A stretch of DNA of 64,000 nt, taken from NCBI GenBank assembly GCA_963664395.2, contig OY761159.2:3616001-3680000 (forward strand). Reading direction: 5' to 3'. The position numbers and the translations under genes were made by a program. The stretch is from Candidatus Binatia bacterium. GTDB taxonomy: Bacteria; Desulfobacterota; Binatia; Bin18. Below, piece by piece: positions 26,292 to 42,932 of the stretch. How positions within the stretch are numbered: the stretch's first letter is position 1; each line of letters opens with the position of its first letter. The notes under the pieces are model-generated. The model did not search any database, had not been told where the DNA came from, and saw only the letters and a program-made list of their open reading frames with translations.

Positions 26292-26375
<84 letters not shown>

Positions 26376-26383
26376 TAAGTCAC

Positions 26384-26418
26384 GGGGCTTTTCTCAACAA
26401 AGAGGGAAGCCCCTTTTT
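26384..26418 (+). terminator. Intrinsic terminator after tRNA-Leu
   Basis: GGGGCTT...AAGCCCC followed by TTTTT. Confidence 0.7.
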
Positions 26419-26485
26419 ACTGGGATTCTGTTACAACAGACCTCTTATCTCATAAAGCGAGTCTGCTTCCCCAAGGAGAGAGCTG

Positions 26486-29400
26486 ATGCCAAACGAACTG
26501 GCAACCCAATACGACCCGGCCGGACTGGAAAAAACGATCATACAGCGCTGGGCCGAGACCAAGCCCTTTGCGGCTACGCCGGACGACAACGCTCAACGCT
26601 ATGTGATCATGATGCCGCTGCCCAATGTCACCGGCGCGCTGCACATGGGGCACGCCATGGACAACGTCATGCAGGATATGCTGACACGCTGGCATCGCAT
26701 GATGGGGGATAACGCGTTGTGGATGGCGGGGACGGATCATGCCGGCATCGCCACGCAGGCCGTTGTGGAAAAGCGCCTGTTCGAGCTGGAAGGCAAAACG
26801 CGCCATGACGTTGGCCGCGAGGCCCTGGTGGAACGCATCTGGGACTGGAAAGAGCAATACCAGGCCCGCATTGTCAGCCAACAACAGGCCATGGGCTGTT
26901 CGTGCGACTGGGACCGCCAGCGCTTTACCATGGATACCGTCTGTGCGCGGGCCGTGCAGTGGACGTTCTTTCATCTGTTCCGTGACGGACTTATTTTTCG
27001 TGGTACCCGCCTGGTCAACTGGGACTGTCATTTGCAAACCGCAGTCGCGGATGACGAGATTGTGTATGAAACCACACAGGGGCATTTCTGGCATCTGCGC
27101 TATCCCATCATTGATCCTCAGCCGGGCGAACCGGAATACGTTGTGGTCGCTACGACGCGGCCTGAAACCATGCTGGGCGATACCGCGGTGGCCTGCCATC
27201 CCGACCCGCGCGGAACGCTGGAAGCACTCATTCGCAAAACCCAGGAGCGCCTGACCCGCGCCGGCCAAAAAGAACGCGCCGAATTGGAAGCAGAGATTGC
27301 TCGGCTTGAAAAACGCCGTGACTCGCACCTGCCGCAACTTGAACGGCTCGCCGCCATGGCCAAAGCTGGTCGTATGGTTCGACTGCCGCTCCTGGAGCGC
27401 CCGATGCCGCTCATCTGCGACGAATGGGCAAAACCAGAATTAGGCAGTGGCTGTGTGAAAATCACCCCAGGCCATGACCCCAATGACTACGAGGTATGGG
27501 GCCGCCACACAGAAGAGATCGGTATTATTAATATTCTTCGCGTTGATGGTTCTTTGAACGACAGTGCCGGGTTGTACCAAGGACTTGACCGTTTTGAGGC
27601 ACGAGACAAGGTTATTCAGGATCTGGAGGCTCAAGGCTTACTCGAAGCCATTGAGGATCGAGAGATCGAAATCGGCCACTCAGACCGATCCAAGACGCCG
27701 GTTGAGCCGTATCTGTCGGAGCAGTGGTTCGTGCGCATGGGTGATGTGGACGGTGGGGTGGTGTGTGGCCGGGGGACAGACAATGAATTTGTTGCACCCG
27801 GATTAGCCCAGGCCGCCCTTGACGCTGCCGAAGGTATATGGCGCTCGCCCACGGGCAAGAGCGTTTCTTTTCACCCGGACATTCGTTACCGTAATACCTA
27901 TATCAGTTGGCTCTCAGAGAAGCGTGACTGGTGTATCAGCCGTCAGCTCTGGTGGGGACATCAGATCCCGATCTGGTCAGGGAGCTTCCAAGGCCGGGCG
28001 TTGCAGGAACAACTCGCCTGGCTCGCACCGTATTTGAAGCGTGAGGATGTTGTCGCCCGCTTACAGACGAGTGACACGAACGAACTCCTCAATTCCGCTA
28101 CGTTGGCTAGTATAGCCCGACAGATTGCCGACGCTATGCAGGAGCAAATCCAAGGAAAAATTTTGGTGTGTTTGCGTGAGTCGCCTCTCCAAGAGGACGT
28201 TGTGAGAGACCTGGAAGCAGCCGGTTTTGTCCGTGACCCCGATGTGCTGGATACCTGGTTTTCGAGCGGATTGTGGCCGCATAGCACCTTGGGCTGGCCC
28301 GCTCCCAACACCGCGGCAGTCGAAGCGGGTCAATCGCCTTTAGGGAAACTCAACGGCTCTCAGGATTGCCTCTCATATTACTATCCAGGCTCGTGCCTCG
28401 TGACCGGGCGCGACATCATTACCCTATGGGTCGCCCGCATGGTCCTCATGGGCCTGTATAACCTGGGTGACGTGCCGTTCACCGATGTCTTTATCCACGC
28501 CACGATTTTGGATGGGAAAGGCGAACGGATGAGTAAATCGAAAGGCAATGGCATTGATCCGGTGGATATTATCGAACGCTACGGCTGTGATGCCATGCGG
28601 TATGTCCTGTGTGAGATGCAAACCGGCTCGCAGGACATTCGCCTGCCCGTTCAAGCCATATCGCCGTTTAGCAATGAACCCGTAGACCTGGCAAAAGCCA
28701 AGCATGGCAACAGTATTTTTACCTACGTCTGCCCCAAAACCGGCAAAGAATTTGATGTGCTCGGCACCATGCCGGACATCCCTTCGGCCAAGCTGATCAG
28801 CGAACGCTTTGAGGTTGGCCGCCACTTCTGTAACAAGCTGTGGAACGCGGTGCGGTTTGCGTTGCTGAATCTTGAGCAGGCATCTTTTGTGGAACGGAAG
28901 CCGGCTGAACTGTCGTTCGAAGATCGTTGGATATTATCGCGCCTGACGCGGGCAATCGCCGAAGTGCAACAACAGCTTGAAACCTATAATCCGTCTGCTG
29001 CCATCTCGACTGCGCGTGACTTTTTCTGGTCAGAACTGTGCGATTGGTATCTGGAAATGATCAAGCCGCGCCTGCGCCAGGCAGGCGAAGGGGACAGCGC
29101 CCGACAAGTCCTGGCCTTCTGCATTGATCAGACTCTGCGGCTGTTTCATCCGTTCATTCCTTTTGTGACCGACTTTTTATGGCAACAACTGAATGCACAT
29201 GCCGCCCCGCGCGGGATTGAGAGCCAGCTTCAGACGCCCGACACGATATCCCGCGCGCCGTGGCCACAGCCGAATACGAACTGGCAAAATGAGCAACTGG
29301 AACAACAGGTAGACTTTTTACAGAGCGTCATTCGGGCCATTCGCGATATTCGCAGCCAGTACACGGTGCCGCCGAAACAGCGGGTGCAGGTACGCATCAA

Positions 29401-29761
29401 AACCGTGGACCAAGCGCCGGATATTCTGAACAAGGGACTGATCCATATTCAAGGTCTGGCCGGGGTTGAGTCGGTTGAGATGGCCGCGGATGCCGAGCGG
29501 ACGCGCGATTCCGCCACTGCGGTTGTGGGCGATCTTGAGATTTACGTGCTGGGGGTCATCGATGTGGAGAAAGAACGGGCGCGTTTGAACGGACAGATCA
29601 AGAAATTGAACGGCGTGCTTGAGGGCGTGCGGAAAAAGCTCGGTAACGAGAAATTCCTGTCACGGGCAAACCCCGAAGTGGTTGTAAAGGAGCGCTCCAA
29701 GCTGGCCGACATGGAGTCGCAGTTAGGGACGCTCAACGAGAATCTTGCCGCGTTGGGGTAA
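26486..29761 (+). CDS. valS: Valine--tRNA ligase with insertions
   Basis: PNVTGALHMGH, DHAGIATQ, TTRPET, DWCISRQLWWGH, RMSKS, C-terminal coiled coil. Confidence 0.96.
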   Translation: MPNELATQYDPAGLEKTIIQRWAETKPFAATPDDNAQRYVIMMPLPNVTGALHMGHAMDNVMQDMLTRWHRMMGDNALWMAGTDHAGIATQAVVEKRLFELEGKTRHDVGREALVERIWDWKEQYQARIVSQQQAMGCSCDWDRQRFTMDTVCARAVQWTFFHLFRDGLIFRGTRLVNWDCHLQTAVADDEIVYETTQGHFWHLRYPIIDPQPGEPEYVVVATTRPETMLGDTAVACHPDPRGTLEALIRKTQERLTRAGQKERAELEAEIARLEKRRDSHLPQLERLAAMAKAGRMVRLPLLERPMPLICDEWAKPELGSGCVKITPGHDPNDYEVWGRHTEEIGIINILRVDGSLNDSAGLYQGLDRFEARDKVIQDLEAQGLLEAIEDREIEIGHSDRSKTPVEPYLSEQWFVRMGDVDGGVVCGRGTDNEFVAPGLAQAALDAAEGIWRSPTGKSVSFHPDIRYRNTYISWLSEKRDWCISRQLWWGHQIPIWSGSFQGRALQEQLAWLAPYLKREDVVARLQTSDTNELLNSATLASIARQIADAMQEQIQGKILVCLRESPLQEDVVRDLEAAGFVRDPDVLDTWFSSGLWPHSTLGWPAPNTAAVEAGQSPLGKLNGSQDCLSYYYPGSCLVTGRDIITLWVARMVLMGLYNLGDVPFTDVFIHATILDGKGERMSKSKGNGIDPVDIIERYGCDAMRYVLCEMQTGSQDIRLPVQAISPFSNEPVDLAKAKHGNSIFTYVCPKTGKEFDVLGTMPDIPSAKLISERFEVGRHFCNKLWNAVRFALLNLEQASFVERKPAELSFEDRWILSRLTRAIAEVQQQLETYNPSAAISTARDFFWSELCDWYLEMIKPRLRQAGEGDSARQVLAFCIDQTLRLFHPFIPFVTDFLWQQLNAHAAPRGIESQLQTPDTISRAPWPQPNTNWQNEQLEQQVDFLQSVIRAIRDIRSQYTVPPKQRVQVRIKTVDQAPDILNKGLIHIQGLAGVESVEMAADAERTRDSATAVVGDLEIYVLGVIDVEKERARLNGQIKKLNGVLEGVRKKLGNEKFLSRANPEVVVKERSKLADMESQLGTLNENLAALG

Positions 29762-29765
29762 GCGC

Positions 29766-29794
29766 TTGACGCCCCGGAGAGGGCTTTATAGGCT
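29766..29794 (+). promoter_or_regulatory. Sigma70-like promoter of TA pair
   Basis: TTGACG-N17-TAGGCT. Confidence 0.5.
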
Positions 29795-29853
29795 ACTGGG
29801 GCAACATGGTCATCCAGCAGCAGGTGGACCGGTAAAAACCATGAGGAACTCCA

Positions 29854-30048
29854 ATGACTCCACAATTTCTTGTTGACGCGGACGGGCACAGGACCGCCGT
29901 CGTTTTACCGCTTCAGGACTTCCGGGCACTGGTCGAGCGCTTGGAAGAGTTGGAGGACCTGCGGCTCATTGAAGAACGAAAAAATGAGCCGACCATTCCC
30001 ATTTCCTCCCTGGAGGACCTGCTAGCCGATGTTGAAGCTGGCGATTAA
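29854..30048 (+). CDS. Type II antitoxin (RelB-like partner)
   Basis: Small acidic protein (AVVLP...ERLEELED) overlapping the downstream toxin. Confidence 0.8.
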   Translation: MTPQFLVDADGHRTAVVLPLQDFRALVERLEELEDLRLIEERKNEPTIPISSLEDLLADVEAGD

Positions 30049-30286
30049 ACGCGGTGTTTTGAAAGACCTGGGTTCGTTGCCGAAAGATGTCAGAGGCTGT
30101 GCCGCGCTCTCGATACTCGAACTGGCTACGTCGCCTTCGCCACAAGGGGTTGAAAAGTTGAAAGGATACGAACGGCTGTATCGTATCCGTGTTGGCGATT
30201 ACCGTATTGTCTACGAAATCGCCGGAGAAGACGTGACAATTGTTGCCGTCAGTCATAGGAAAGACGTTTATCGCGATCTTCAATAG
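30029..30286 (+). CDS. RelE/ParE-family toxin
   Basis: KLKG...YRIRVGDYRIVYEI...HRKDVYR. Confidence 0.92.
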   Translation: MLKLAIKRGVLKDLGSLPKDVRGCAALSILELATSPSPQGVEKLKGYERLYRIRVGDYRIVYEIAGEDVTIVAVSHRKDVYRDLQ

Positions 30287-30448
30287 CTGCCGTTGATCGG
30301 AAGATGCGTTGCCGTCTGCTTGTGGTAGCCTGGAAAGCCGTTGTCACGAGGTCGGGGCCTCTCTGCTAAACAGATCGTTCTGGTGATTATCTGGATCGCG
30401 ATCTGCCCTATCTTGCCTTCATCACGCTCTCTTCGTAATTGGTAAAAG

Positions 30449-33400
30449 ATGTCTCGCAAGGAATATAATTGGAAGCGGTTCTGGTCCCCAAGGGGAGAGT
30501 CTATCAACCTCTCTTATGATGGGTATTTACCAAATCCCGATGACAAATGGGATCAGTACAACAACCCCAATGTTGTTCCCTTTGATGCCATATCAGAGAC
30601 TCCATGTCTGGCTCTTCTTGGGGAGCCGGGTATTGGGAAAAGCTACACTCTGGAATCCGTACAAAAGGCTATGGAAGTCCAGGTTGCGGAGGGCGATGTT
30701 AGGCCGCTGATCCTGAACCTCCGCTCCTATGGCAATGAAGACAGATTGGTCCGAGACCTCTTTGAAAGCGGAACCGTCAGAGATTGGCAGAATGGCGATT
30801 ATCGACTGTATATTTTTCTTGACAGCCTTGATGAATGCCTTTTACGAATCGATACCGTCGCAGCTCTTCTCGTTGACAAACTAAAAAAGCTTCCCGTCCA
30901 TCGCCTGTCTCTCCGTATTGCCTGCCGGACCGCAGATTGGCCAAACAATCTCGAAGAAGGGTTAAAGGAATTATGGGGAGAGGAGGATTTTCGAGCATAC
31001 GAGCTAGATCCCCTCCGAAAGCAAGATGTTATTGAGGCCGTGCAAGCAAATAGCTTGGACTCAGAAGCATTCATGGAAGCGGTTTCCGCAGCCGCAGCGG
31101 TTCCTTTTGCAATAAAACCTGTCACCCTAGAATTTCTTATCAACACATACCGTCGCCGTAAGCAGCTTCCTTCTTCTCAAGCAGAACTATACCTCGAAGG
31201 CTGCCGTTGTCTCTGTGAGGAGACAAACGAAGACCGTCGTACTGCTGGCCGTACTGGCGTTCTTTCTACCGGCTGGCGACTCGTAATTGCTGCCCGCATA
31301 GCGGCAGTAACTCTACTCTCCAACAGGGACGCAATCTGGAAAGGACTCGATATCGGCGAAGTGCCGGATGAAGATATAATCCTGAGGAAGTTGGCTGGTG
31401 GAACCGAGCAAGTTAATGAGACAGCATTTCAAGTAACTGAGGCACACATTCGGGAAGTATTGGACACGGGTCTTTTCTCCGCACATGGTCCGCAGCGTAT
31501 GGGCTGGGCGCATCAGACCTACGCGGAATATCTTGCTGCGCGTTATCTCCACAGCAAGATGACGAATGACCAAATCATGAGTTTGCTGACTCATCCCGAT
31601 GATCGTGAAGGACGGCTAGTTCCTCAACTGCGTTCAACCGCCGCTTGGCTGGTGAACTTGGAACCGGGTCGTTTTTTCCAAGACCTCATGAAAGCCGACG
31701 CCGAGGTCTTGCTCTATTGTGATCTGTCTACAGTGAGTGAAGGGAATAAGAGGGCGCTCGTTGATACTCTCCTATCACTCTACGATGAGGAGAAGCTGCT
31801 TGATGACGATTGGGGATTGTATGAACAATACGAAAAGCTGAATCACCCTGATCTGGCCGATCAACTCAAGCCCTATATTTGTGACCCAACCAAAGGATTC
31901 CTTGTTCGGAGAGTGGCAATCAACATTGCTGAATCGTGTAAGCTGCAAACACTCCAAGATGATCTGCTTGGGGTCGCGCTTGACAACTCTCAGCGCTTAG
32001 AGACCCGCGTTGAAGCAGCCTGCGCAGTTGCCCGCGTCGGGGATGAAACCGTGCGAGCAAAGCTAAAACCTCTGGCTATCACCGGAGGAGATAACGATCT
32101 GCGGGATGAATTGAAAGGGTATGCTCTTAAGGCCCTATGGCCGGGTCTCATAACAGCAGAGGAATTGTTTTCTGTCCTTACTCCACCGAAAGCCAAGAAT
32201 TTCGCCGGAGCGTATTCTAGTTTTCTTAGCAAGGATTTAGTCCCTTCTCTCCAAGAGGCTGATTTGTCTATCGCTCTACAATGGGCAGACAAGGAGGAAA
32301 GTCTCTACCGGGATACTTATCTAAAGGGAGAGAGGCTGCATCGGGGTACTTACCTGCATGAAAGAATTATCGACGCGATCATGCTCAAGGCATGGAATAA
32401 TCCCGATCAGCCAGGGATAAGCAGAGGGTTCGCTAAGATCGCCCTACTGAGACTAGAGCAACATAGAGACATAATAGGCAAGAGATATAACTCAGAGCAC
32501 GCGGATATTCTTGCGAGCAACGAGGAGAGACGCAGAAAAGTTCTCCACGTTATCCCCTCCCTCATTGCAGACTCATCAGACCAGGCAGTGTTCAGAGTGG
32601 CATCCTATATGATGCGTCAAAAAATGATCTTGAAGAAAGACGTTCCATGGATGATTGAGCGTCTCATGGAGACTATCTCCGAAAAAGAGCAAACTATCTG
32701 GGCACGTTTTATAGGGAGGTTATTTGACAGAGAAGATGCCGAACAGGTGGATTCAATTCTGACGACTTGTCAGCATAACCAAGTGCTTTCAGAGGTATGT
32801 AGCTGGCTTCTCAGAATATGGGACCTCTCTTCCGACGACACTCAAAAAGAGAGAGAAGGATACCGAGAGAGGCAGGGATGGGAGGAAGCGCATCACGATC
32901 AGCCCTTGTTGGACCCCCCACCTGCGGAGCGGATAGAAATCCTCTTAAGAGAGTGTGAGGAAGGGAACCTTAACGCTTGGTGGCAACTGAATCTAGAAAT
33001 GACTCTTGAGCCTACCAGCACGCATTATGAAGATGATCTCGAATCAGACTTGACAGCTCTTCCCGGCTGGAGGGATGCGAATCGGACTCTAAAAGCACGC
33101 TTGGTGGCAGTGGCAAAGCGGTACATTCAGGAGAGGGAAGTAGAGCGAGAGAAACAGATTTGCACTAACAAAGCGGCATCTGGAAGCCCTGTCATTATCC
33201 ACCGCCCAGCGCTCGCAGGATATCGAGCTTTTCGACTCTTGTTACAGGAGGAAGAAGATTTTGCAGTTCGCCTCGACCCCTCCGTATGGAAAAGATGGGC
33301 GTCCGTTATCATTAGCTATCCTCTTTCAGGTGATGTAGGGGCAGAAGAATCTCACCGTACCCTGATAAGTCAGGCGTATGCCTCCGCACCCGAAGAAGTC

Positions 33401-34735
33401 ATTGAAAGCCTCATGATCTTAATTGATCGAGAGAACCGTGAACACCAGTCTGTTTGGATTATCGAGAACATAAAACATTGTTGGGACGAACGTCTGGCAA
33501 ATGCGTTGTTGTCTAAGGTTAAGGTTAAGGATACTCAATTAAAACCTGGAAGCATGCGAAAGCTGTTGGACGAATTGATTATTCATAGTGTCCAGGAAGC
33601 GAGAAATTTGGCAGAAGGATTGATCCAGGCACGATATAGCTCCGATCAAGAACGGCAAGCGAAAGCAGTCCAGGCCGCCGCGTCTCTTTTCCTACACTCT
33701 GAAGATGCTGGTTGGTCGACTATATGGCCGTTAATCGAAAAGGAGCCCAGCTTCGGGGAAAAGATATTCGGGGAGATTGTACAGGAGAGTAGGCATTCTC
33801 TAAATCGGCATTTGACAGAAGATCAATGGGCAGATGTATACATCTGGCTCTCCTGCCAATATCCACATGCCGAAGACCCACAGGAAGAAGGAGCACATCG
33901 GGTCACGCCTCGGGAGAGCATTGGGAATTGGCGAGACTTAATCTTAAGCTTTCTTAAGGAGTTGGGGACAGTTGACGCTTGCGGGGCGATCCAGAAAATT
34001 TCTGAAGCTCGGCCTGAATTAGACTTTATTAAATGGGTGCTGATTCAGGCCCGAGAGAAGACGCGAGCGAAAACATGGTTTTCCCCTCAGCCGGAAGTAA
34101 TTCTTCAACTCTCCAGGGATCGAAAATCCTGCTTGGTACAAAATGGAAGCCAGCTTCTTGCCGCCCTCATCGAATCTTTGAAGCGAGCAGAAGAGAAGCT
34201 CCAAGGCGAAACACCCGCCGCCGAGTTTCTATGGAATAAGATAGGCAAAGACGCTTATAGACCTAAGGATGAGAATTCGTTCTCTAATTGGCTGAAGCTT
34301 CACCTTGAGGATGACCTAAAGACGCGAGGAATTATCACAAATCGAGAAGTTGAAATCCGTCGAGGAGAAGGAACGGGACAAGGAGAACGAACGGACATCT
34401 ATGTAAACGCCATCATTCGAGAACATCCAGAGAATAATCTCTATGATCAGATCACCGCTATCATCGAAGTAAAAGGTTGCTGGCATAAAGAACTCAAGGA
34501 TGCCATGCAAACGCAGCTCGCCGAGCGTTATCTAAAGGATAACCAATGCGATCATGGCTTATACCTTGTCGGATGGTTTCCCTGCGATCAGTGGGACAAA
34601 AAGGATCGAAGAAAATCGCAAACTCCGAAGATGAGGCTCGAACAGGCACGTAAAAATTTCGCTTGCCAAGCCCGAGAGCTTTCACAAAACGGGAAAACGA
34701 TTGAGTCTTTTGTAATGAACACCGCCCTTCGATGA
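30449..34735 (+). CDS. NACHT/STAND NTPase with helical sensor region and C-terminal PD-(D/E)xK-like domain (Avs-like)
   Basis: Walker A GEPGIGKS, Walker B IFLDSLDE, IACR sensor, WAHQTYAEYLAA winged-helix signature, C-terminal E...REVE...RTDI...IIEVK. Confidence 0.8.
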   Translation: MSRKEYNWKRFWSPRGESINLSYDGYLPNPDDKWDQYNNPNVVPFDAISETPCLALLGEPGIGKSYTLESVQKAMEVQVAEGDVRPLILNLRSYGNEDRLVRDLFESGTVRDWQNGDYRLYIFLDSLDECLLRIDTVAALLVDKLKKLPVHRLSLRIACRTADWPNNLEEGLKELWGEEDFRAYELDPLRKQDVIEAVQANSLDSEAFMEAVSAAAAVPFAIKPVTLEFLINTYRRRKQLPSSQAELYLEGCRCLCEETNEDRRTAGRTGVLSTGWRLVIAARIAAVTLLSNRDAIWKGLDIGEVPDEDIILRKLAGGTEQVNETAFQVTEAHIREVLDTGLFSAHGPQRMGWAHQTYAEYLAARYLHSKMTNDQIMSLLTHPDDREGRLVPQLRSTAAWLVNLEPGRFFQDLMKADAEVLLYCDLSTVSEGNKRALVDTLLSLYDEEKLLDDDWGLYEQYEKLNHPDLADQLKPYICDPTKGFLVRRVAINIAESCKLQTLQDDLLGVALDNSQRLETRVEAACAVARVGDETVRAKLKPLAITGGDNDLRDELKGYALKALWPGLITAEELFSVLTPPKAKNFAGAYSSFLSKDLVPSLQEADLSIALQWADKEESLYRDTYLKGERLHRGTYLHERIIDAIMLKAWNNPDQPGISRGFAKIALLRLEQHRDIIGKRYNSEHADILASNEERRRKVLHVIPSLIADSSDQAVFRVASYMMRQKMILKKDVPWMIERLMETISEKEQTIWARFIGRLFDREDAEQVDSILTTCQHNQVLSEVCSWLLRIWDLSSDDTQKEREGYRERQGWEEAHHDQPLLDPPPAERIEILLRECEEGNLNAWWQLNLEMTLEPTSTHYEDDLESDLTALPGWRDANRTLKARLVAVAKRYIQEREVEREKQICTNKAASGSPVIIHRPALAGYRAFRLLLQEEEDFAVRLDPSVWKRWASVIISYPLSGDVGAEESHRTLISQAYASAPEEVIESLMILIDRENREHQSVWIIENIKHCWDERLANALLSKVKVKDTQLKPGSMRKLLDELIIHSVQEARNLAEGLIQARYSSDQERQAKAVQAAASLFLHSEDAGWSTIWPLIEKEPSFGEKIFGEIVQESRHSLNRHLTEDQWADVYIWLSCQYPHAEDPQEEGAHRVTPRESIGNWRDLILSFLKELGTVDACGAIQKISEARPELDFIKWVLIQAREKTRAKTWFSPQPEVILQLSRDRKSCLVQNGSQLLAALIESLKRAEEKLQGETPAAEFLWNKIGKDAYRPKDENSFSNWLKLHLEDDLKTRGIITNREVEIRRGEGTGQGERTDIYVNAIIREHPENNLYDQITAIIEVKGCWHKELKDAMQTQLAERYLKDNQCDHGLYLVGWFPCDQWDKKDRRKSQTPKMRLEQARKNFACQARELSQNGKTIESFVMNTALR

Positions 34736-34769
34736 CTCTATTCTACCTGAAAAAACAAGAAGAGACGCC

Positions 34770-37700
34770 ATGCCTCGTATTTTCGACAATATCGAACAGC
34801 ATCTCCAGCCTGTATTAGCCGAGACCCTGAAGCTTGCCGACCGGGCCGACTTCTGTGTCGGATATTTCAACTTGCGCGGCTGGCGGTTGATCGATTCATA
34901 TGTGGAACAATGGGACGGGGGCGAGGGGCATTGCTGCCGTGTCCTTGTCGGAATGCAGCGCTTGCCACACGAGGAATTTAGGATAGCCAGAAGTCTGTCC
35001 GCCGGCCAATCGGCACTCGACAATCAGACGGCGCTTCGGCTCAAAAAAAGACTCGCCGAAGAATTTCGAGAACAACTGACACTCGGTGCGCCGAGTAATG
35101 AAGACGAGACGGGCCTGCGCAGGTTGGCGAAGCAGATCAAGGCAAAGAAGGTTGTCGTCAAGCTGTTCCTCAGACATCCGCTCCATGCCAAGCTCTACCT
35201 CCTGTTTCGGCCCGACCCGATCAACCCGATCACCGGCTATCTGGGAAGCAGCAACCTTACCCAAGCAGGGCTCTCTCATCAGGGTGAACTCAATATTGAC
35301 GTGCTCGACCATGACGCCAGTCAGAAGCTCGCCACATGGTTTGAAGATCGATGGAATGACCGCTGGTGCGTCGATATATCGAAAGAGCTTGTTGAGATTA
35401 TTGAAGAGAGTTGGGCACGTGAAGAACTGATTCCGCCCCACCACATCTACATCAAAATCGCCTACCATTTATCGCAGGAAGCACGGGCTGGGTTGACCGA
35501 ATTTCGCATCCCAAAGGACTTTGGGAATAAGCTGCTCGACTTCCAGACAGCGGCAGTAAAAATCGCGGCGCATCATCTGAACCGGCGGGGAGGCGTTATC
35601 ATCGGTGATGTTGTCGGACTGGGCAAAACGCTCATGGCGACCGCCCTGGCGCGCGTGTTCGAGGACGACCACGGACTCGAAACCTTAATCATTTGCCCCA
35701 AGAACCTTGTTCCAATGTGGGAGGATTATCGTGAGCAGTACCGAATGCGTGCTCGCGTCCTGTCGATCACCCGCGCGATCAGAGAGCTGCCCGACATGCG
35801 TCGTTACCGCTTGGTGCTGATCGACGAGAGTCATAACCTGAGGAACCGGGAAGGTAAGCGATACCGGGCCATTCAGGAATACATTCAGGAAAACGACAGC
35901 AAATGTATCCTGCTGTCGGCAACGCCCTATAACAAGACGTATTTGGATCTGTCCAGCCAACTCCGTCTGTTCGTGTCCGAGGATGAAGACTTGGGGATCC
36001 GCCCGGAACGCTTGCTGAGAGAGATGGGCGAGACGGGGTTCGTGCGCCAGCATCAAGCGCCGGTTCGGTCCCTGGCCGCGTTCGAGAAATCCGAGCATGC
36101 AGAGGACTGGCACGAACTCATGCGTCTTTATCTCGTCCGCCGGACCCGTGGCTTCATCCAGAACAACTATGCTACCACCGACCCGGCCACCGGGCGTCAA
36201 TACTTGACGTTTGAAGACGGCAGAAAATCCTATTTCCCGACACGGGTCCCAAAGACGGTACAGTTTAATATCGACGGCCAATATGGCCAGTTGTTCGCGG
36301 ACGATGTGGTTGAGGCCATAAATCGTTTGGAACTGCCACGCTATGGGCTCGGCAACTACAGCTCTGATGTTCCGCGTACACCGCCGACACAAGCCGAAGC
36401 CACAATCTTGAACGACCTGTCGCGCGCCGGTAAGCGTCTGATGGGTTTCTGCCGGACTAATCTGTTCAAACGTCTGGAGAGTAGCGGTCATGCCTTTCTG
36501 CTGTCAGTCGAACGCCACATTCTCAGAAACTTCATCTTTCTGCACGCGCTGGAGAATGATCTGTCGCTCCCAATCGGAACGACGGACGCTGGGCTGCTGG
36601 ACCCGCAGTCGTTTGACGAAGATGCCGAGCAGGCCGTTGGCGACATCTTCGATACGGAGGACGACGAAGACAACGGCGAACCCGGAGGAACGACTTCGCT
36701 GAGGACCGAAGAGGATTTTCGCAACCGCGCTGCCGCAGTCTACGCACTGTTTACCGATAAATACAGGAAGCGGTTTCGCTGGCTGGCCTCGCATCACTTT
36801 AAGGCAGACCTGGGCAAAGCCCTCAGGGCCGATGCTGAGATTCTCCGCAATCTCCTGGTCACGTTCGGCGAGTGGCGAGCCGTGGACGATACGAAGTTGG
36901 ACGCACTGCAAGAAGTGCTTGTGAATCGACACCAGGAATACAAAGTACTGGTCTTCACGCAATTCGCCGACACGGTGCGCTATCTTGAAAACGAGTTGAA
37001 GGCGCGTGGAGTGTCGGGCATGGCTGCGGTAACAGGAGACACGCCGAACCTGACGGAACTAGTCTGGCGGTTCAGCCCGAGGAGCAACGAGAAGGACACC
37101 CCCGCCGAAGAAGAACTGCGCGTGCTGATCGCGACCGATGTGCTGAGCGAGGGGCAGAATTTGCAAGACTGCGCCGTTGTGGTGAACTACGACCTGCCGT
37201 GGGCCATTATCCGTCTGATTCAACGTGCTGGCCGTGTGGACCGTATCGGCCAGCAGGCGGACGCCATCCTGTGTTACTCCTTTCTTCCGGCCGAAGGGAT
37301 TGAGCGTCTGATTCGGCTTCGCGCCCGCGTGCGGACACGCCTTCAAGAGAACGCCGAGGTGGTGGGAACGGACGAGGCATTCTTCGAGGACGAGGACAAA
37401 CAGACCGTGCTTGACCTGTATAACGAAAAGGCCGGTATTCTCGACAGTGACGACGAGATGGACATCGATCTGTCCTCGTATGCGTATCAAATCTGGCGGA
37501 ACGCGACGCAGGCTGACCCGTCGCTCAGAAAGAAAATCGAAGATATGCCTTCTGTTGTCCATTCATCGAAAGCCCATCAACCACAGCCGCAGCGACCGGC
37601 AGGAGCGCTTGTCTATACGCGCACCGCCCAGGGGTACGACGCATTGGCCTGGATAAACCGCGATGCTAAGAGCGTGACTGAGAGCCAATTCGAGATTCTA

Positions 37701-38123
37701 CGTGCTGCGGAATGCGCGCCCGATACGCCGGCTCTCCCCCGGCATGACACGCATCATGAGCTGGTCAGCAAAGCCGCAGAACATATCGCCCGTGAGGAAA
37801 AGCAGGTTGGCGGCCAACTCGGCCGGCCCTCGGGTGCCAGGTTTCGTGTATACGAACGGCTCAAAGGCTATGCTGAAAGCGTCAAGGGTACACTGTTCGA
37901 TACCGGACCACTCCGGCGTGCAATCGACGACATCTATCGCTATCCCTTGCGACAGGCTGCGGTGGATACGCTGAACCGTCAGTTGCGAAGTGGGGTATCC
38001 GACCAGACCCTTGCCGAGTTGGTCATTGCGCTCCGGGATGACGACCGGCTGTGCATTGTCCATGACGAGGACGAAGGTCAGGAACCACGCCTCATCTGCT
38101 CAATGGGGTTGATAGGGCACTGA
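34770..38123 (+). CDS. PLD-family nuclease fused to SNF2-type helicase
   Basis: HAKLY...GSSNLT...ELN (PLD), GDVVGLGKT, DESH, SATP, VFTQF, SEGQNLQ, QRAGRVDRIG. Confidence 0.9.
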   Translation: MPRIFDNIEQHLQPVLAETLKLADRADFCVGYFNLRGWRLIDSYVEQWDGGEGHCCRVLVGMQRLPHEEFRIARSLSAGQSALDNQTALRLKKRLAEEFREQLTLGAPSNEDETGLRRLAKQIKAKKVVVKLFLRHPLHAKLYLLFRPDPINPITGYLGSSNLTQAGLSHQGELNIDVLDHDASQKLATWFEDRWNDRWCVDISKELVEIIEESWAREELIPPHHIYIKIAYHLSQEARAGLTEFRIPKDFGNKLLDFQTAAVKIAAHHLNRRGGVIIGDVVGLGKTLMATALARVFEDDHGLETLIICPKNLVPMWEDYREQYRMRARVLSITRAIRELPDMRRYRLVLIDESHNLRNREGKRYRAIQEYIQENDSKCILLSATPYNKTYLDLSSQLRLFVSEDEDLGIRPERLLREMGETGFVRQHQAPVRSLAAFEKSEHAEDWHELMRLYLVRRTRGFIQNNYATTDPATGRQYLTFEDGRKSYFPTRVPKTVQFNIDGQYGQLFADDVVEAINRLELPRYGLGNYSSDVPRTPPTQAEATILNDLSRAGKRLMGFCRTNLFKRLESSGHAFLLSVERHILRNFIFLHALENDLSLPIGTTDAGLLDPQSFDEDAEQAVGDIFDTEDDEDNGEPGGTTSLRTEEDFRNRAAAVYALFTDKYRKRFRWLASHHFKADLGKALRADAEILRNLLVTFGEWRAVDDTKLDALQEVLVNRHQEYKVLVFTQFADTVRYLENELKARGVSGMAAVTGDTPNLTELVWRFSPRSNEKDTPAEEELRVLIATDVLSEGQNLQDCAVVVNYDLPWAIIRLIQRAGRVDRIGQQADAILCYSFLPAEGIERLIRLRARVRTRLQENAEVVGTDEAFFEDEDKQTVLDLYNEKAGILDSDDEMDIDLSSYAYQIWRNATQADPSLRKKIEDMPSVVHSSKAHQPQPQRPAGALVYTRTAQGYDALAWINRDAKSVTESQFEILRAAECAPDTPALPRHDTHHELVSKAAEHIAREEKQVGGQLGRPSGARFRVYERLKGYAESVKGTLFDTGPLRRAIDDIYRYPLRQAAVDTLNRQLRSGVSDQTLAELVIALRDDDRLCIVHDEDEGQEPRLICSMGLIGH

Positions 38124-38150
38124 TACATTCCGCTATGCTTGATGCCGTTA

Positions 38151-38177
38151 CCTTACCTACATAGAGCCTCTGTAAGG
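38151..38177. promoter_or_regulatory. Putative AbrB autoregulatory operator
   Basis: CCTTAC-N15-GTAAGG inverted repeat just upstream of the abrB-like start. Confidence 0.45.
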
Positions 38178-38185
38178 AAAAACGT

Positions 38186-38428
38186 ATGATTGTTAAAATC
38201 ACCTCAAAACGCCAAGTCACCCTCCCGACACAGGTGCTAGACGCGCTCGGCGTTGGTCCCGGCGATCAACTCGACCTGGAAGAAAGCCCCGAAGGATTCA
38301 TTCTGCGACCGCGGCGGATAGACTATTCCAAGCTAGGCTTTCTCAAAGACAAGATTGATCCCACAGTCGAGCCGTTCGATATCGAGAAGTTCAGGAGTGA
38401 GCCCTATGACCCGTCGTTACGGGATTGA
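38186..38428 (+). CDS. AbrB/MazE/SpoVT-family antitoxin
   Basis: KITSKRQVTLP...LGVGPGD. Confidence 0.88.
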   Translation: MIVKITSKRQVTLPTQVLDALGVGPGDQLDLEESPEGFILRPRRIDYSKLGFLKDKIDPTVEPFDIEKFRSEPYDPSLRD

Positions 38429-38513
38429 TACCTCCGACTATCCCTGCGTTGACCTGGAAGTCTTGACGCTGGACCGTCAGAGGGTCGCCTTATCCAATGT
38501 CCGGCGACTCTAA
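38406..38513 (+). pseudogene. Internally deleted PIN/VapC toxin remnant
   Basis: 35-aa ORF MTRRYGIDTS|DYPCVDLEVLTLDRQRVALSNVRRL: PIN start motif joined to PIN end motif, overlapping the antitoxin stop. Confidence 0.7.
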
Positions 38514-38534
38514 AACCCACCGAGGACACTGCCA

Positions 38535-41500
38535 ATGCCGACACCTCTCGACAGAGATAAAATCAGAAAATATCTGGAAGACTTCAACCTCCGCGCCCTA
38601 TTTGTCGAGGAGCTTGGCTGGGACCACGGCGGCGAGAACATAGAAGTTACAGTCGCAAGCAAGCCGTTCGTTCTTGAAGCCATCGCCCACAAGCGCGGCA
38701 TGGTCGTCTACCAACACGTTGCTGATACAGACGAGGCCTTCCCTGACCATCCCACCCGCCAGAAGATCGAAAAAACCGTTGCCAAGACCGTCCGTGAACA
38801 CCTCATCGTGTACGCCCCGCCCGACCAGAGCGCGCAGTATTGGCAATGGGTAAAACGTGAACCCGGCCAGCCCGATCGGTCTCGCCAGCATATTTATCAC
38901 CGGGACCAGCCGGGCGAGGCGCTGATCCAGAAGCTGGAGCAGCTTGTCTTTACGCTGGACGAAGAAGATGATCTGACCATCGTTGACGTTTCGGGCCGGG
39001 TGCGTGCGGCGTTCGACGTGGAAAAGATCACCAAGAAGTTCTACGACCGTTTCAAGCAGGAACATCACGCCTTTCTGGAATTCATCGAAGGCATACAGAA
39101 CATCGCTGACCGGGAATGGTACGCCTCGCTCATGCTGAACCGGATGATGTTCATCTACTTCATCCAGAAGCGTGGTTTTCTCGACAACAACATGGACTAT
39201 CTGCGCGACCGTCTGGAAAGAGTGCGGCAGCAGGGAGGCGGCAACTTCCTCAGTTTCTACCGCCTGTTCCTGCTGCGGCTGTTTCACGAAGGATTGGGCC
39301 AACCCGAGGCCGACCGCGTCCCTGAATTGGTGGAGTTGCTCGGCCAAGTTCCGTATCTCAACGGCGGCCTGTTTGACGTACACGACTTGGAGCGTGACAA
39401 CCCGAAAATACACATTCCCGATGAAGCCTTTCAGAACATCTTCGCCTTTTTCGACGCCTATCAATGGCATCTCGATAACCGTCCGCTTCGGAACGACAAC
39501 GAGATCAATCCCGACGTGCTGGGCTATATCTTCGAGAAATACATCAACCAGAAGCAGATGGGGGCCTACTATACCAAGGAGGACATTACCGGCTACATCA
39601 GCCGCAACACCATTCTTCCCTTCCTGTTCGACCGGGCGAAAAAGGCGTGTCCGATTGCCTTCACGTCTGGCGGCGGAGTGTGGCGGCTGTTATCCGACGA
39701 CCCCGACCGCTATTTTTACGAGGCAGTCCGCCACGGCATCACCTTTGACATCCATAAAAAAGAGGACCTTGCGGAAAAGCGCGAGCTGCCGCCCGACATC
39801 GCCGCTGGCCTGAACGACGTGTCCAAACGCGGGGGATGGAACAAGGCGGCCCCAGCCGACTATGCTTTGCCAACCGAAACTTGGCGCGAGCATGTTGCCC
39901 GGCGTCAGCGCTACGAGGAAATCCGAGCCAAACTGGCCGCCGGCGAGGTTACGTCGATCAACGACCTCATCACCTACAATCTGGACATCGAGAAATTCGC
40001 CCTGGACGTGATAGCCGGGAGCGAAGGGCCGGAACTGGTCCGCGCCTTCTGGAAAGCGCTCAACGCGGTTTCCGTCCTTGACCCGACGTGCGGGTCTGGC
40101 GCGTTCCTGTTCGCGGCGCTCAACATTCTGGAGCCGCTGTACACGGCCTGTCTGGAGGTCATGCGCGGCTTTCTGGATGATCTGGAGCGCTCGCAACGCA
40201 AGCACCGTCCGGAGAAACTGCGCGACTTACGCACGGTGTTAGAACAGGTCGCCGCGCACGCCAGTGAAAGCTATTTCATTCACAAGTCCATTATTGTCAA
40301 TAACCTGTACGGTGTAGACATCATGGAAGAGGCCGTAGAAATCTGCAAACTGCGTCTGTTCCTGAAGCTCGTTGCGCAGTTGGAACGCTACGAGCAGATT
40401 GAGCCGTTGCCTGATGTTGATTTCAACGTCCGTGCCGGTAACACGCTCGTTGGTTTTGCTTCACTTGAGGAAGTGAAAAATGCGCTGAGCGCCGACCTGA
40501 TAAAACAGTTGTCCCTTCCTCAGATAGAAGAGCGCGCCGAAATCGCCGACCGCGCCTTTCGTAAGTTCCGTGAAATGCAGACCGAGCACGGCATGGACGC
40601 CAGCGAGTTCGCCGTCACCAAGGTGGAATTACGGAAACGACTTGACGACCTGCGCAACGAGTTAGACCTGTATTTGGCGGGTGATTACGGGGTCAAGGTG
40701 AAAAGTAAACGAGCGTATAAAAAATGGCGTGACAGCCATCAGCCGTTTCACTGGTTCGTTGAGTTTTACGGGATTATGCACGGCGGTGGGTTCGACGTGA
40801 TTATAGGTAATCCGCCGTATGTCGAGTACAGAAAAGTGAAGGAGTCCTATAGAGTACTAGGCTTTTACACTAAACGGACTGCCAACCTCTATTCTTTCAC
40901 AGCCGAACAATCCGAGAGATTACTTTGTGCAAAAGGACGTGTCGGCCTAATCATTCCCGTATCTTTTGCTTCCTCAGATTTATTTGAACCACTTCGACAA
41001 TTATTTTGGGAGACAAATCGGCCTTTGTGGCTTTCCCATTTCTCCAATAGGCCGGGGCAGCTCTTCTCTGGCGCACAGAATAGATTAACAATTCTCCTTG
41101 CGGGAGAAAAAGGATCACAAATAGCTTTTTCAACGAGATATCATCGTTGGGACGAAAAACGTGGGGAGCGTTCGTCCCTCTTTCAGACTCTTCAGTACAT
41201 TGGCCTCGGGGACCCAACCCGATTACTTCATGGACTTTTTTGTAAGAGTGGATCGAAAGAATCAGTCTCAGCTCTAGGAAAAATCGATGTTGATACGACG
41301 ATCCGTGAGCATTTATCAAAATCGGGATCAGCCTCTGTTCACTGGGTCCGTGTTCCTGGCTACTTTTGTCAGTTCTTTCTGAAGCCACCACTGGTACGAA
41401 CAGAGGACGGGGGCCAAGTAAGGGTCAGAGGAGAAGTCAAAACCATCTACACAGCAGATGAGGGACTGCGGCACGTAATCCACGCTCTTCTGAATAGCTC

Positions 41501-41846
41501 CACCTATTATCTTTATTTTAGCGCCTATTCCGACGGTCGGCATATAAATCCAGCTGATGTTTACGATTATCCATTCAAGTTCAGCTCATTCTGCGCAAAT
41601 ACGGCTGCACAACTGGAGAGATTATCAGAACGGCTCCAAGATGCGATGATGAAACATACAAGCCACTGGCGAAAAAGTGGTTTATTAATTGATTCAGTGG
41701 ATTCTAAACCCTGCAAGCCAATTATCGACGAAATCGATCACGTGCTTGCCGAACACTACGGTTTCACTGACGAAGAACTGGACTTCATCATCAACTACGA
41801 CATCAAGTATCGTATGGGACGGGAAGCAACGGAAGGAGAGGTGTGA
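38535..41846 (+). CDS. N6-adenine DNA methyltransferase with C-terminal TRD (Eco57I/type IIG-like)
   Basis: YLNGGLF, GAYYT, DPTCGSGAF (motif I), GNPPY (motif IV). Confidence 0.92.
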   Translation: MPTPLDRDKIRKYLEDFNLRALFVEELGWDHGGENIEVTVASKPFVLEAIAHKRGMVVYQHVADTDEAFPDHPTRQKIEKTVAKTVREHLIVYAPPDQSAQYWQWVKREPGQPDRSRQHIYHRDQPGEALIQKLEQLVFTLDEEDDLTIVDVSGRVRAAFDVEKITKKFYDRFKQEHHAFLEFIEGIQNIADREWYASLMLNRMMFIYFIQKRGFLDNNMDYLRDRLERVRQQGGGNFLSFYRLFLLRLFHEGLGQPEADRVPELVELLGQVPYLNGGLFDVHDLERDNPKIHIPDEAFQNIFAFFDAYQWHLDNRPLRNDNEINPDVLGYIFEKYINQKQMGAYYTKEDITGYISRNTILPFLFDRAKKACPIAFTSGGGVWRLLSDDPDRYFYEAVRHGITFDIHKKEDLAEKRELPPDIAAGLNDVSKRGGWNKAAPADYALPTETWREHVARRQRYEEIRAKLAAGEVTSINDLITYNLDIEKFALDVIAGSEGPELVRAFWKALNAVSVLDPTCGSGAFLFAALNILEPLYTACLEVMRGFLDDLERSQRKHRPEKLRDLRTVLEQVAAHASESYFIHKSIIVNNLYGVDIMEEAVEICKLRLFLKLVAQLERYEQIEPLPDVDFNVRAGNTLVGFASLEEVKNALSADLIKQLSLPQIEERAEIADRAFRKFREMQTEHGMDASEFAVTKVELRKRLDDLRNELDLYLAGDYGVKVKSKRAYKKWRDSHQPFHWFVEFYGIMHGGGFDVIIGNPPYVEYRKVKESYRVLGFYTKRTANLYSFTAEQSERLLCAKGRVGLIIPVSFASSDLFEPLRQLFWETNRPLWLSHFSNRPGQLFSGAQNRLTILLAGEKGSQIAFSTRYHRWDEKRGERSSLFQTLQYIGLGDPTRLLHGLFCKSGSKESVSALGKIDVDTTIREHLSKSGSASVHWVRVPGYFCQFFLKPPLVRTEDGGQVRVRGEVKTIYTADEGLRHVIHALLNSSTYYLYFSAYSDGRHINPADVYDYPFKFSSFCANTAAQLERLSERLQDAMMKHTSHWRKSGLLIDSVDSKPCKPIIDEIDHVLAEHYGFTDEELDFIINYDIKYRMGREATEGEV

Positions 41847-41852
41847 GAGCTA

Positions 41853-42059
41853 ATGAAACTACACGTCGATGAGGAAGCCGACGCGCTCTACCTGCGCCTC
41901 GACGCCTCCGCTATCGTCGAGTCCGAAGAGGTCTCGCCGGGAGTGATGCTTGATTACAACGAATCGAACGAAGTGGTAGGCGTGGAAATGCTCCATCTCT
42001 CAAAACGTTCCGCCAGCCTGAATCTTTCTACCCTGGAATTAACCGTCCAGAAGATGTGA
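41853..42059 (+). CDS. DUF2283-like protein (TA-associated), orphan
   Basis: DEEADALYLRL...EVSPGVMLDY...VGVE. Confidence 0.8.
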   Translation: MKLHVDEEADALYLRLDASAIVESEEVSPGVMLDYNESNEVVGVEMLHLSKRSASLNLSTLELTVQKM

Positions 42060-42063
42060 ACGA

Positions 42064-42711
42064 TTGAAAACCAGACGCTATGAATCGGGGACGCCTGACA
42101 CGCCGGCAGCGTTGCGACGTTGTACTGACGCGGGGGGCGCATCTTCGGTCACATTAAAGGGCGACCTCGGCATACTCGATAAAAGGCTGATTGGATTCTT
42201 CTGCTCGGTGCGTTGTCCGGGCGACGTCATACTCAAGACCTACGATCTCGCGCGGGTGCTGCGCGAAACCGACGTGACGATGGTCGGCGGGTTCCAGTCT
42301 CCTATGGAGAAGGAGTTCCTGGACCTGCTGCTGCGGGGTTCGGTGTCCATCGTTGTCTGTCCGGCGCGTGGGCTTGGCAGCCTGCGGATTCCAAAGAGCT
42401 GGAAGAAACCGCTGGACGAAGGCCGCTTGCTGCTCCTGTCCTTTTTTGACGATAATATCTGTCGCCCCACCGCAAATATCGCCACCAAGCGTAACGCTTA
42501 TGTCGCCGCTCTTGCCGACCGTCTTCTCATCGCTCATGCCGAACAGAGCGGCAAAATCGAGACATTATGCAAGGAAGCGCTTACTGAGGGGAAGCGGGTG
42601 TTTGCCCTGGATTCGCCGGATAATGCGCACTTGGTTGAACTTGATATTACACCGGTCCTGGCTGAGGACTCCTCACCGTTGATATCGAAGGGAAGCGTCC
42701 CTTCTTGTTGA
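42064..42711 (+). CDS. DprA/SMF-like (SLOG) protein
   Basis: GDLGIL, FFCS..CPG, GGFQSPME, KRNAYVAALAD. Confidence 0.75.
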   Translation: MKTRRYESGTPDTPAALRRCTDAGGASSVTLKGDLGILDKRLIGFFCSVRCPGDVILKTYDLARVLRETDVTMVGGFQSPMEKEFLDLLLRGSVSIVVCPARGLGSLRIPKSWKKPLDEGRLLLLSFFDDNICRPTANIATKRNAYVAALADRLLIAHAEQSGKIETLCKEALTEGKRVFALDSPDNAHLVELDITPVLAEDSSPLISKGSVPSC

Positions 42712-42713
42712 TT

Positions 42714-42932
42714 CTACTCAAGGACATCGGACGTGCCCTCTACCCACTCCATCGCTTCGGTTTCTCGTTCGATATCTGCCGCCATCCGACGGTAGCCCTC
42801 CTGAATATCGCCATATATGACGTAGGGCCTGACTAATGACTCGATAAACCGGCTGATCTTACGTCTCCCTACGACTTGGTACAGACCTGCGTATACGTCT
42901 TCGTCTATGGTGATTGTCAGCTTCTTTTGCAT
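42714..42932 (-). CDS. Orphan RHH-type addiction-module antitoxin
   Basis: MQKKLTITIDEDVY...ISRFIE...GYRRMAAD.ERETEA.EW; no toxin downstream. Confidence 0.75.
   Translation of the reverse strand: MQKKLTITIDEDVYAGLYQVVGRRKISRFIESLVRPYVIYGDIQEGYRRMAADIERETEAMEWVEGTSDVLE

Follow-up and report, generated by a model that had tools for sequence, protein, structure and literature searches.

A NACHT protein with a C-terminal nuclease-like domain in a Candidatus Binatia bacterium, apparently a distant relative of the Erebus/Hypnos (Avs10) family

Background

Effectors that follow the repeat domain are rare among bacterial NACHT proteins, and those recorded in the 2022 preprint of Kibby et al. were predicted there to occupy the same spatial position as N-terminal ones. 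The closest described system is Avs10 (Erebus/Hypnos/bNACHT64), which is reported to sense phage major capsid proteins, and the same report states that mutation or deletion of effector domains abolished cell death (Nature 2026, PMC13581612). According to the source data of its Supplementary Fig. 13, the effector-dead mutant of EhAvs10 is E1263A-K1265A, and with three capsid proteins survival rose from 0.0005-0.015 for the wild type to 0.57-1.16 for this mutant. All other Avs point mutants in that table are located at residues 47-98, except for EcAvs19 C918/C920, a second mutant of this protein that gave no rescue (PMC13581612). The C-terminal-effector layout is already in print, with one tested family (Avs10); the names Erebus and Hypnos are credited to van den Berg et al. 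2024 in the reference list of the Nature 2026 paper. The gene analysed here encodes a 1428-aa NACHT protein with this layout and lies in a window of 64,000 nucleotides from a Candidatus Binatia bacterium (Desulfobacterota; Binatia; Bin18; assembly GCA_963664395.2, contig OY761159.2, positions 3,616,001 to 3,680,000 of the forward strand).

Both this protein and Avs10 comprise an N-terminal NACHT module with no effector ahead of it, an extended helical sensor and a C-terminal domain with an E...D...ExK motif. The ExK motif is found about 85 aa from the C-terminus in both, at E1340/K1342 of 1428 aa here and at E1258/K1260 of 1344 aa in P0274, a Pantoea agglomerans protein related to the NCBIfam family antiphage_EruA; this position is also near the E1263/K1265 pair mutated in EhAvs10. 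Unlike the EruA-like proteins, the Binatia protein is about 80-100 aa longer, and its subfamily is known mostly from environmental bacteria and archaea, whereas the kin of Avs10 occur in enterobacteria and pseudomonads. A STAND (signal transduction ATPase with numerous domains) NTPase, a large helical sensor and a nuclease-type effector are shared with Avs1-4 and most other Avs proteins (Avs7, Avs8 and Avs11-21), as are presumed trigger-induced oligomerisation and abortive infection (PMC13581612). However, the effectors of these proteins are N-terminal, with mutants at residues 47-98, while here the effector position is C-terminal and the NTPase is of the NACHT type (DSLDE). The protein bNACHT25 described by Kibby et al. 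also combines the D[GAS]hDE signature with an effector of the restriction-endonuclease fold, but its Mrr-like endonuclease is N-terminal (D48A mutant). The type II restriction endonucleases, McrC and Can2-type PD-(D/E)xK proteins resemble the C-terminal domain in the modelled core fold, the D...ExK residues and a predicted two-fold dimer, although identity is only 8-16% with no sequence-level match, and the domain is built into a 1428-aa sensor protein.

Domain organisation of the NACHT protein

The protein is encoded by a single open reading frame with an ATG start. Its features are as follows, in window coordinates.

30449..34735, + strand: whole gene, 1428-aa NACHT STAND protein with a C-terminal nuclease-like domain, P0001 (open reading frame translation, NCBIfam antiphage_EruA, homologues)
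30449..30583, + strand: short conserved lead-in, residues 1-45 (invariant residues in 20 of 20 sequences; no effector domain ahead of the NTPase)
30584..31648, + strand: NACHT NTPase module with presumed nucleotide-binding, helical and winged-helix parts, approximately residues 46-400 (weak Pfam matches, BLASTP; borders approximate)
30620..30640, + strand: Walker A motif, G58-E-P-G-I-G-K64, GEPGIGKS at 58-65 (regular-expression match)
30821..30835, + strand: Walker B motif with the NACHT signature, D125-S-L-D-E129, D[GAS]hDE (regular-expression match)
31649..34123, + strand: helical HEAT-like solenoid, presumed sensor, approximately residues 401-1225 (structure model, Foldseek, weak Pfam match, profile alignment with EruA-like proteins)
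33149..34048, + strand: most divergent stretch of the sensor, residues 901-1200 (windowed identity to the same-genus orthologue)
34124..34732, + strand: PD-(D/E)xK (restriction-endonuclease-like) domain, presumed effector, approximately residues 1226-1428 (structure model, VIA-align, BLASTP)
34196..34315, + strand: predicted two-fold dimer interface, residues 1250-1289, a hairpin and the first core helix (two-copy complex prediction)
34271..34273, + strand: E1275, where the first core helix (76-93 in the model) begins (invariant; structure model)
34394..34396, + strand: D1316 (RTDI), presumed metal ligand where the second core strand begins (invariant; aligned with D1244 of RADI in P0274)
34466..34474, + strand: E1340-V-K1342 (IIEVK), ExK catalytic motif on the third core strand (invariant; aligned with E1258/K1260 of P0274)

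The annotated ATG appears to be the right start, because relatives align from residue 1 with Y6, R10, F11 and W12 invariant; L21, G25, Y26 and F45 are likewise invariant in all 20 aligned sequences. It is not a chance frame, since 2195 database proteins match its product at E ≤ 1e-5 (7998 candidates scored). The preliminary description of this stretch had noted that the gene is AT-richer than its neighbours, and its GC content of 0.488 is lower than that of the flanking genes (0.567 in valS upstream and 0.566 downstream) and of the entire window (0.556).

The Walker A motif, previously placed about 55 aa into the protein, starts at residue 58, and its residues G58, E59, P60, G61, G63 and K64 are invariant (20/20), as are D125, L127, D128 and E129 of Walker B. 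A Pfam scan of the protein revealed no domain in residues 1-45; nothing precedes the NTPase, and the arrangement known from Avs3 and Avs4, with the nuclease N-terminal to the NTPase, is not present. The Pfam families AAA_22, NPHP3_N, AAA, NACHT (E=0.0064, residues 55-198) and AAA_16 match the NTPase, all of them below cut-off. The Walker A motif together with the D[GAS]hDE signature, which is the Walker B definition of the NACHT clade in the preprint of Kibby et al., is that of the NACHT clade of STAND NTPases, even though the Pfam NACHT match itself is sub-cut-off.

Beyond the NTPase, about 800 aa had been described as helical or HEAT-like, in agreement with the AlphaFold2 model of residues 229-1428 (m62c04127d50b, 40-row alignment; predicted local distance difference test score, pLDDT, 84.5; predicted template-modelling score, pTM, 0.70). 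Between about model residues 128 and 1022 this model contains helices only, and it then passes into an alpha-beta-beta-beta-alpha-beta domain. Its best Foldseek matches in the PDB are HEAT/ARM solenoids (SF3B1, importin-beta and CAND1) with E values of about 1e-5 and low TM-scores of 0.13-0.21; the PDB matches as a whole (TM-scores 0.08-0.21) were such generic solenoids only, with no solved Avs structure among them. The sole Pfam match on the sensor is a weak one to HEAT_2 (E=0.023). In comparison with a same-genus orthologue, 81.5-83% identical overall by different measures, the six 50-aa windows covering residues 901-1200 are 50, 64, 68, 78, 60 and 57% identical, while the remaining 22 windows of the pair are 78-96% identical. 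This divergence would be compatible with a fast-evolving binding surface, recombination being the alternative.

The C-terminal domain contains the motifs NREVEIRR...GERTDI...IIEVK in this order, corresponding to the E-x-REVE...RTDI...IIEVK pattern pointed out earlier, and the residues E1275, D1316, E1340 and K1342 are invariant in two alignments, in 20 of 20 sequences and 40 of 40 relatives, respectively. Folded alone, the last 229 aa (residues 1200-1428) gave a model with pLDDT 82.2 and pTM 0.80, in which DSSP assigns H76-93, E102-108, E115-127, E132-144, H150-165 and E170-177. This alpha-beta-beta-beta-alpha-beta order is that of the PD-(D/E)xK core, with D117 on the second strand and E141/K143 on the third (fragment numbering). 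Searched by VIA-align against structure representatives, the model matched first the McrBC chain 6hz4_M (Z 8.1, root-mean-square deviation 3.8, 121 aligned residues), followed by BamHI (Z 7.9), PaqCI, BstYI and Can2; among the 20 best rows, 15 are titled restriction enzymes, endonucleases or CRISPR ancillary nucleases. The weak rows returned by Foldseek were BbvCI, MUS81 and BamHI. A nuclease is the best reading of the domain from motif and modelled fold, and nucleolytic activity would be expected from it. A RecB-type QxxxY motif after ExK is not claimed; the spacing here is Q1356-x4-Y1361.

Modelling of oligomers had also been proposed. In the prediction with two copies of residues 1229-1428, the nuclease-like domains form a symmetric two-fold dimer with an interaction score (ipSAE) of 0.72 (0.72, 0.70 and 0.75 in separate runs), the best of three controls scoring 0.00. 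In the numbering of the 229-aa fragment the interface spans residues 51-90; between runs at least 91% of contacts agree, and the pLDDT of the partner is 80 or higher. In a benchmark, 20 of 30 proteins solved as one-chain pairs attained the ipSAE mark, as did 1 of 23 solved single chains. A dimer is thereby predicted, but this result may only reflect likeness to the many solved restriction-enzyme dimers.

Relationship to the EruA, HyoA and Avs10 proteins

An uninterrupted match to the NCBIfam model antiphage_EruA (NF058535; E=6.3e-85, 286.3 bits) pairs residues 41-1394 with positions 13-1289 of the 1318 in the profile, and antiphage_HyoA (NF058534) matches the protein at 158.5 bits. Two EruA-like plasmid proteins, P0274 of Pantoea agglomerans (1344 aa) and one of Vibrio campbellii, score 775.6 and 777 bits against the EruA model, which also leaves them under its 1000-bit cut-off. 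On the HyoA model they reach 84.6 and 129.5 bits, respectively, less than the NACHT protein, which therefore falls within the span of divergence already lumped in the literature. Their layout is the same, with Walker A at residue 40 in Pantoea and 33 in Vibrio, the Walker B variants DALDE and DGLDE, and RADI in both; LIEVK of the Pantoea protein is at 1256-1260 (E1258, K1260).

In BLASTP comparisons with P0274, the NACHT region is 23% identical over 503 aa (E=2e-14) and the C-terminus 28% identical over 162 aa (E=5e-8), the latter alignment pairing RTDI with RADI and IIEVK with LIEVK. Alignment of a profile of 20 relatives with one of 20 EruA-like proteins (hhalign, A1 against A3) covered 1254 columns, 66-1435 against 18-1346, at a probability of 100% (E=1.7e-58) and 15% identity, and was continuous through the sensor. 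The homology to the Erebus/Hypnos family is full-length and the order of NACHT, helical sensor and C-terminal domain is the same. Judged from the sequence, the C-terminal ExK motif of Avs10 also appears to be present, being invariant in the relatives and aligned with that of P0274. Members of both this subfamily and the EruA-like family carry a precomputed Pfam annotation, PF28130 (DUF8371); the DUF8371 name comes from the Atlas via the homologue P0066, the exact sequence of the NACHT protein being absent there. The preliminary description had proposed an NLR-like (NOD-like receptor-like) STAND ATPase with its effector behind the sensor, in a layout regarded as new. Its anatomy stands and its novelty does not, given that the EruA-like family is homologous over its full length with the same layout and that Avs10 is, in a broad sense, a characterised Avs subtype so arranged.

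Several results weigh against this placement and against the nuclease assignment. The equivalog cut-offs of both NCBIfam models are missed by far, at 286.3 of 1000 bits for EruA and 158.5 of 1200 for HyoA. Across the sensor, approximately residues 530-1220, BLASTP found no significant similarity to P0274, and for this reason the trigger may differ from that of Avs10. PADLOC 2.0 gave for the protein only mad8 at 15.6 bits, which is at noise level. The link between Avs10 and EruA rests on the naming in the Nature 2026 paper and on the near-identical position of ExK, and the equation of EruA with Erebus is drawn from the names. As regards the nuclease, the assignment is made from a motif and a middling structural score: by VIA-align's own note a Z under 8 can reflect a common arrangement, so that 8.1 is borderline. 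The structural check proposed earlier for the C-terminus recovered a restriction-endonuclease-like core, but no Foldseek match in the PDB at E ≤ 0.001. Pfam assigned no family to the last 229 aa beyond a 13-bit poxvirus noise match, and the whole protein had no phmmer match among PDB sequences at E ≤ 1.

A literature search with the names EruA and HyoA returned no phage-defence paper among the matches listed, EruA there being an unrelated E. coli regulator, and bNACHT64 led only to the Nature 2026 paper and its preprints. Five accessions of relatives had no row in the searched supplements of that paper, the largest tables lying outside the search. Altogether, the sequence comparisons suggest that the protein is a distant relative of the Erebus/Hypnos (Avs10) family, and it looks like a new divergent member.

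Extent of the subfamily and exchange of the C-terminal domain

The sequence relatives form a distinct, very large subfamily of C-terminal-effector NACHT proteins. Among the 120 matches listed, the query included, relatives range from 1159 to 1444 aa in length and share 45-89% identity with it. With the C-terminal domain alone as query, 2694 cluster representatives were recovered (E ≤ 0.001); each of the 150 matches listed lies no more than about 20 residues from the C-terminal end of its protein, and the shorter proteins in that list are probably contig fragments. Related loci were fetched from species-representative genomes, 75 in all, which belong to Methanosarcinales and other archaea and to more than 10 bacterial phyla, including Cyanobacteria, Planctomycetota, Acidobacteriota, Bacteroidota, Chloroflexota, Bacillota, Myxococcota, Thermodesulfobacteriota, Nitrospirota, Pseudomonadota and others. 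Plasmid copies are found in Nostoc, Dolichospermum, Bradyrhizobium, Bacillus cereus and Rhodococcus, and at three plasmid loci the NACHT relative adjoins Ppl/Abi, TIR or AbiEi genes.

The extent of the match to the query divides the 75 loci as follows.

49 loci: match to residue 1419 or beyond
1 locus: match ends at residue 1379
12 loci: match reaches a contig end or is broken
13 loci: match ends at about residues 1221-1254 and is followed by a different tail of 35-217 aa

The C-terminal slot is thus modular. Of the 13 different tails, 11 were scanned, the two shortest being left out. Two contain CHAT (37.4 and 47.9 bits, cut-off 24) and one contains TIR_2 (55.5 bits, cut-off 28), these relatives being found at loci L033, L072 and L042. 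Two others have weak alpha/beta-hydrolase matches under the cut-off, and the remaining six gave no family at E ≤ 0.001, four of them with chance-level matches (E 0.01-0.07). Occupation of one slot by a nuclease, CHAT or TIR is what would be expected of an effector position.

Some further proteins were observed alongside this survey. Plasmid pCC7120epsilon of Nostoc sp. PCC 7120 encodes a 1302-aa relative matched at residues 6-1232 only, with a non-nuclease tail; two other NACHT NTPase genes, a pentapeptide-repeat gene and an integrase surround it. Proteins of Rhizobium plasmids annotated 'glycosyltransferase' (H10-H14) are 24% identical over residues 6-1208, and from their sequences they may lack the nuclease region and carry a different C-terminal domain. 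Five genomes of the same genus or family as the source (G017, G034, G005, G001 and G019; loci L008-L012) contain open reading frames of 1020-1602 aa that are 26-27% identical to the NACHT half, and that of G017 has an extra short match, 42% identical, at the ExK region (residues 1338-1380). These similarities suggest further C-terminal-nuclease NACHT paralogues.

Genomic context

The NACHT gene is located between valS and a gene for a PLD-SNF2 helicase, in the following setting.

29762..34750, + strand: RelB-ParE-NACHT cassette of about 5 kb between valS and the PLD-SNF2 gene (junctions against same-genus genomes)
29854-30048, + strand: RelB-like antitoxin (Pfam RelB-like, E=8.7e-7)
30029-30286, + strand: ParE-like toxin, overlapping the RelB-like gene (Pfam ParE_toxin, E=4.7e-11)
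34770-38123: PLD(HKD)-SNF2 helicase (PADLOC HKD+Snf2, 168.8 bits)
38186-38428: small MazE/AbrB-like gene
38535-41846: type IIG-like methyltransferase of the Eco57I family (PADLOC REase_MTase_IIG, 1087.7 bits)

The region downstream of valS was compared in 5 of 27 same-genus genomes. Sequence common to these genomes stops just past valS, at 29762-29773 (GCGCTTGACGCC at 29762), and sequence common to the cassette of genome G012 stops at 34750, 18 nt beyond the first base of the NACHT stop codon. These two junctions therefore delimit a lower-GC RelB-ParE-NACHT cassette of about 5 kb in a variable site. Between the source genome (G000) and G012, RelB is 100% and ParE 94% identical, the NACHT protein only 81.5-83%.

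Three of the five genomes have the order valS, 59-60 nt, PLD-SNF2, MazE-like gene, methyltransferase, DprA-like gene and nadC, and no NACHT gene; a fourth has only the MazE-like gene ahead of the DprA-like gene and nadC. In G012, valS is followed by RelB, ParE and NACHT and then by nadC, with no helicase or methyltransferase, while the window carries both modules. The valS-nadC stretch (window 26292-43963, including tRNA-Leu) thus has four gene contents in the six genomes compared, the window included, and is a variable hotspot within the genus. A full-length NACHT orthologue occurs in one of the 27 same-genus genomes, and three other genomes of the family contain orthologues 46-56% identical, of which one has an in-frame TGA and one is split over contigs. 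At locus L006 (G036:C31:438387-442589) a 47%-identical orthologue has one in-frame TGA, which could mark a pseudogene, a sequencing error or recoding.

No relative of the neighbouring PLD-SNF2 or methyltransferase genes was found by tblastn (E ≤ 1e-5) at any of the 75 related loci, of which 49 have at least 3 kb of downstream sequence. The conserved co-occurrence of SNF2 and methyltransferase genes that marks DISARM, BREX and type ISP-like systems is not seen here, and within the genus the two modules occur separately; the NACHT gene is independent of these adjacent genes.

The genes at 34770-41846 constitute a separate candidate defence module, found directly after valS in three same-genus genomes. 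Within its methyltransferase, the C-terminal half (window 40031-41846; compare L093, L094 and L096) has a GC content of 0.496 against 0.564 for the N-terminal half. The methyltransferase of G007 is 81% identical over residues 1-498 and 54% over 495-1102, and those of G018 and G025 are 65% identical overall, with adjacent helicases 91-93% identical. In sequence this pattern looks like a swapped target-recognition region.

Proposed mode of action and alternative explanations

The most probable reading, held at roughly three in four, is that the protein is an antiphage NLR like Erebus/Hypnos (Avs10) and acts as a single-gene system. Its solenoid would recognise a protein that the phage produces while infecting the cell. 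The major capsid protein would, by analogy with Avs10, be the first choice of trigger, at odds somewhat below even, the sensor being about 15% identical at the profile level. Binding would release the NACHT NTPase for nucleotide exchange, ATP binding and oligomerisation, by which the C-terminal PD-(D/E)xK domains would be brought together as two-fold dimers and cut DNA, the inferred substrate. Cutting would stop the phage at the expense of the cell, as in abortive infection.

A genuine relative of Avs10 might also respond to something other than an HK97-fold capsid, such as another phage or archaeal-virus protein or a perturbation of the host, and there is perhaps one chance in three that it does. 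The sensor has no pairwise similarity to P0274, the family extends to Methanosarcinales and other archaea, and other NACHT proteins are reported, in the titles of cited references, to sense several unrelated proteins or a host chaperone; on the other hand, the profile-profile alignment runs continuously through the sensor, and Avs sensors, clustered by Foldseek at 80% coverage and TM ≥ 0.40, are reported to recognise folds across highly divergent sequences (PMC13581612). It is distinctly improbable that the PD-(D/E)xK domain is a DNA-binding or DNA-sensing anchor with the killing left to another factor. Such a role would agree with the middling structural similarity (Z ≤ 8.1), but the full catalytic set E...D...ExK is invariant, the same slot in relatives holds CHAT and TIR, which are of the effector and not the anchor type, and the ExK double mutant of EhAvs10 is reported to lose trigger-dependent toxicity (PMC13581612). 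The protein would very probably not be a non-defence STAND protein such as a regulator or a housekeeping NTPase. Defence and non-defence STAND clades are described as interspersed (PMC13581612), but the patchy distribution, the low-GC cassette, the plasmid and defence-island contexts and the fusion to nuclease, CHAT or TIR domains speak for defence, and no conserved metabolic or regulatory synteny was seen in the 75 loci, where it was tested only for the neighbours present in the window.

The neighbouring genes offer two other explanations. Co-orientation of the genes, the gap of only 34 nt from the NACHT stop codon to the following ATG, and the defence-type PADLOC matches of the helicase and the methyltransferase could indicate a multi-gene system in which the NACHT protein is, for example, a licensing sensor for the PLD-SNF2 helicase and the type IIG-like methyltransferase. 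This idea is extremely improbable and was rejected on presence and absence across loci and same-genus genomes: no related locus has a relative of either neighbour, three of the five same-genus genomes carry PLD-SNF2, MazE and methyltransferase genes minus NACHT, G012 carries the RelB, ParE and NACHT genes minus those, and the GC content of the NACHT gene differs from that of the downstream gene (0.488 against 0.566). Coupling of RelB and ParE to the NACHT gene, as an addiction module or a regulator within a functional three-gene cassette, is unlikely, if less so. The three genes occur together in G000 and G012 and are together absent from four of the five same-genus loci, and the cassette junctions enclose all three; yet ParE relatives are found at one and RelB relatives at none of the 75 related loci (tblastn E ≤ 1e-3), the EruA-like plasmid loci lack the pair, and co-presence in two genomes of one genus amounts to a single event.

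Implications for the family

As a single finding the gene is ordinary, because its layout and likely mechanism are already in print. What is added here is the extent of the subfamily, the CHAT and TIR tails, the RelB/ParE cassette downstream of valS and the independence from the neighbouring genes. Tentatively, and with the chances rather against it, the subfamily might be a deep and large branch (2694 nuclease-domain representatives; archaea and more than 10 phyla) whose sensor has diverged from that of Avs10 beyond pairwise recognition, whose trigger would be other than the HK97 capsid, possibly including archaeal-virus proteins, and whose C-terminus would be a plug-in position for a nuclease, a CHAT protease, TIR or other domains.

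A C-terminal effector is the minority layout among bacterial NLR-like proteins, with Avs10 as the one family tested so far. If the tentative view of a deep, diverged branch is right, the subfamily would be a natural system in which to ask how a NACHT scaffold switches on an effector that is attached beyond its sensor. The exchange of C-terminal effectors, together with one divergent segment of the sensor, would offer material on the passage of a signal from sensor and NACHT module to the distal effector, and the abundance of the subfamily in environmental bacteria and archaea would offer material for triggers outside the phages of enterobacteria. For annotation, DUF8371 proteins, now mostly 'hypothetical', could be described as Erebus/Avs10-like NACHT nucleases.

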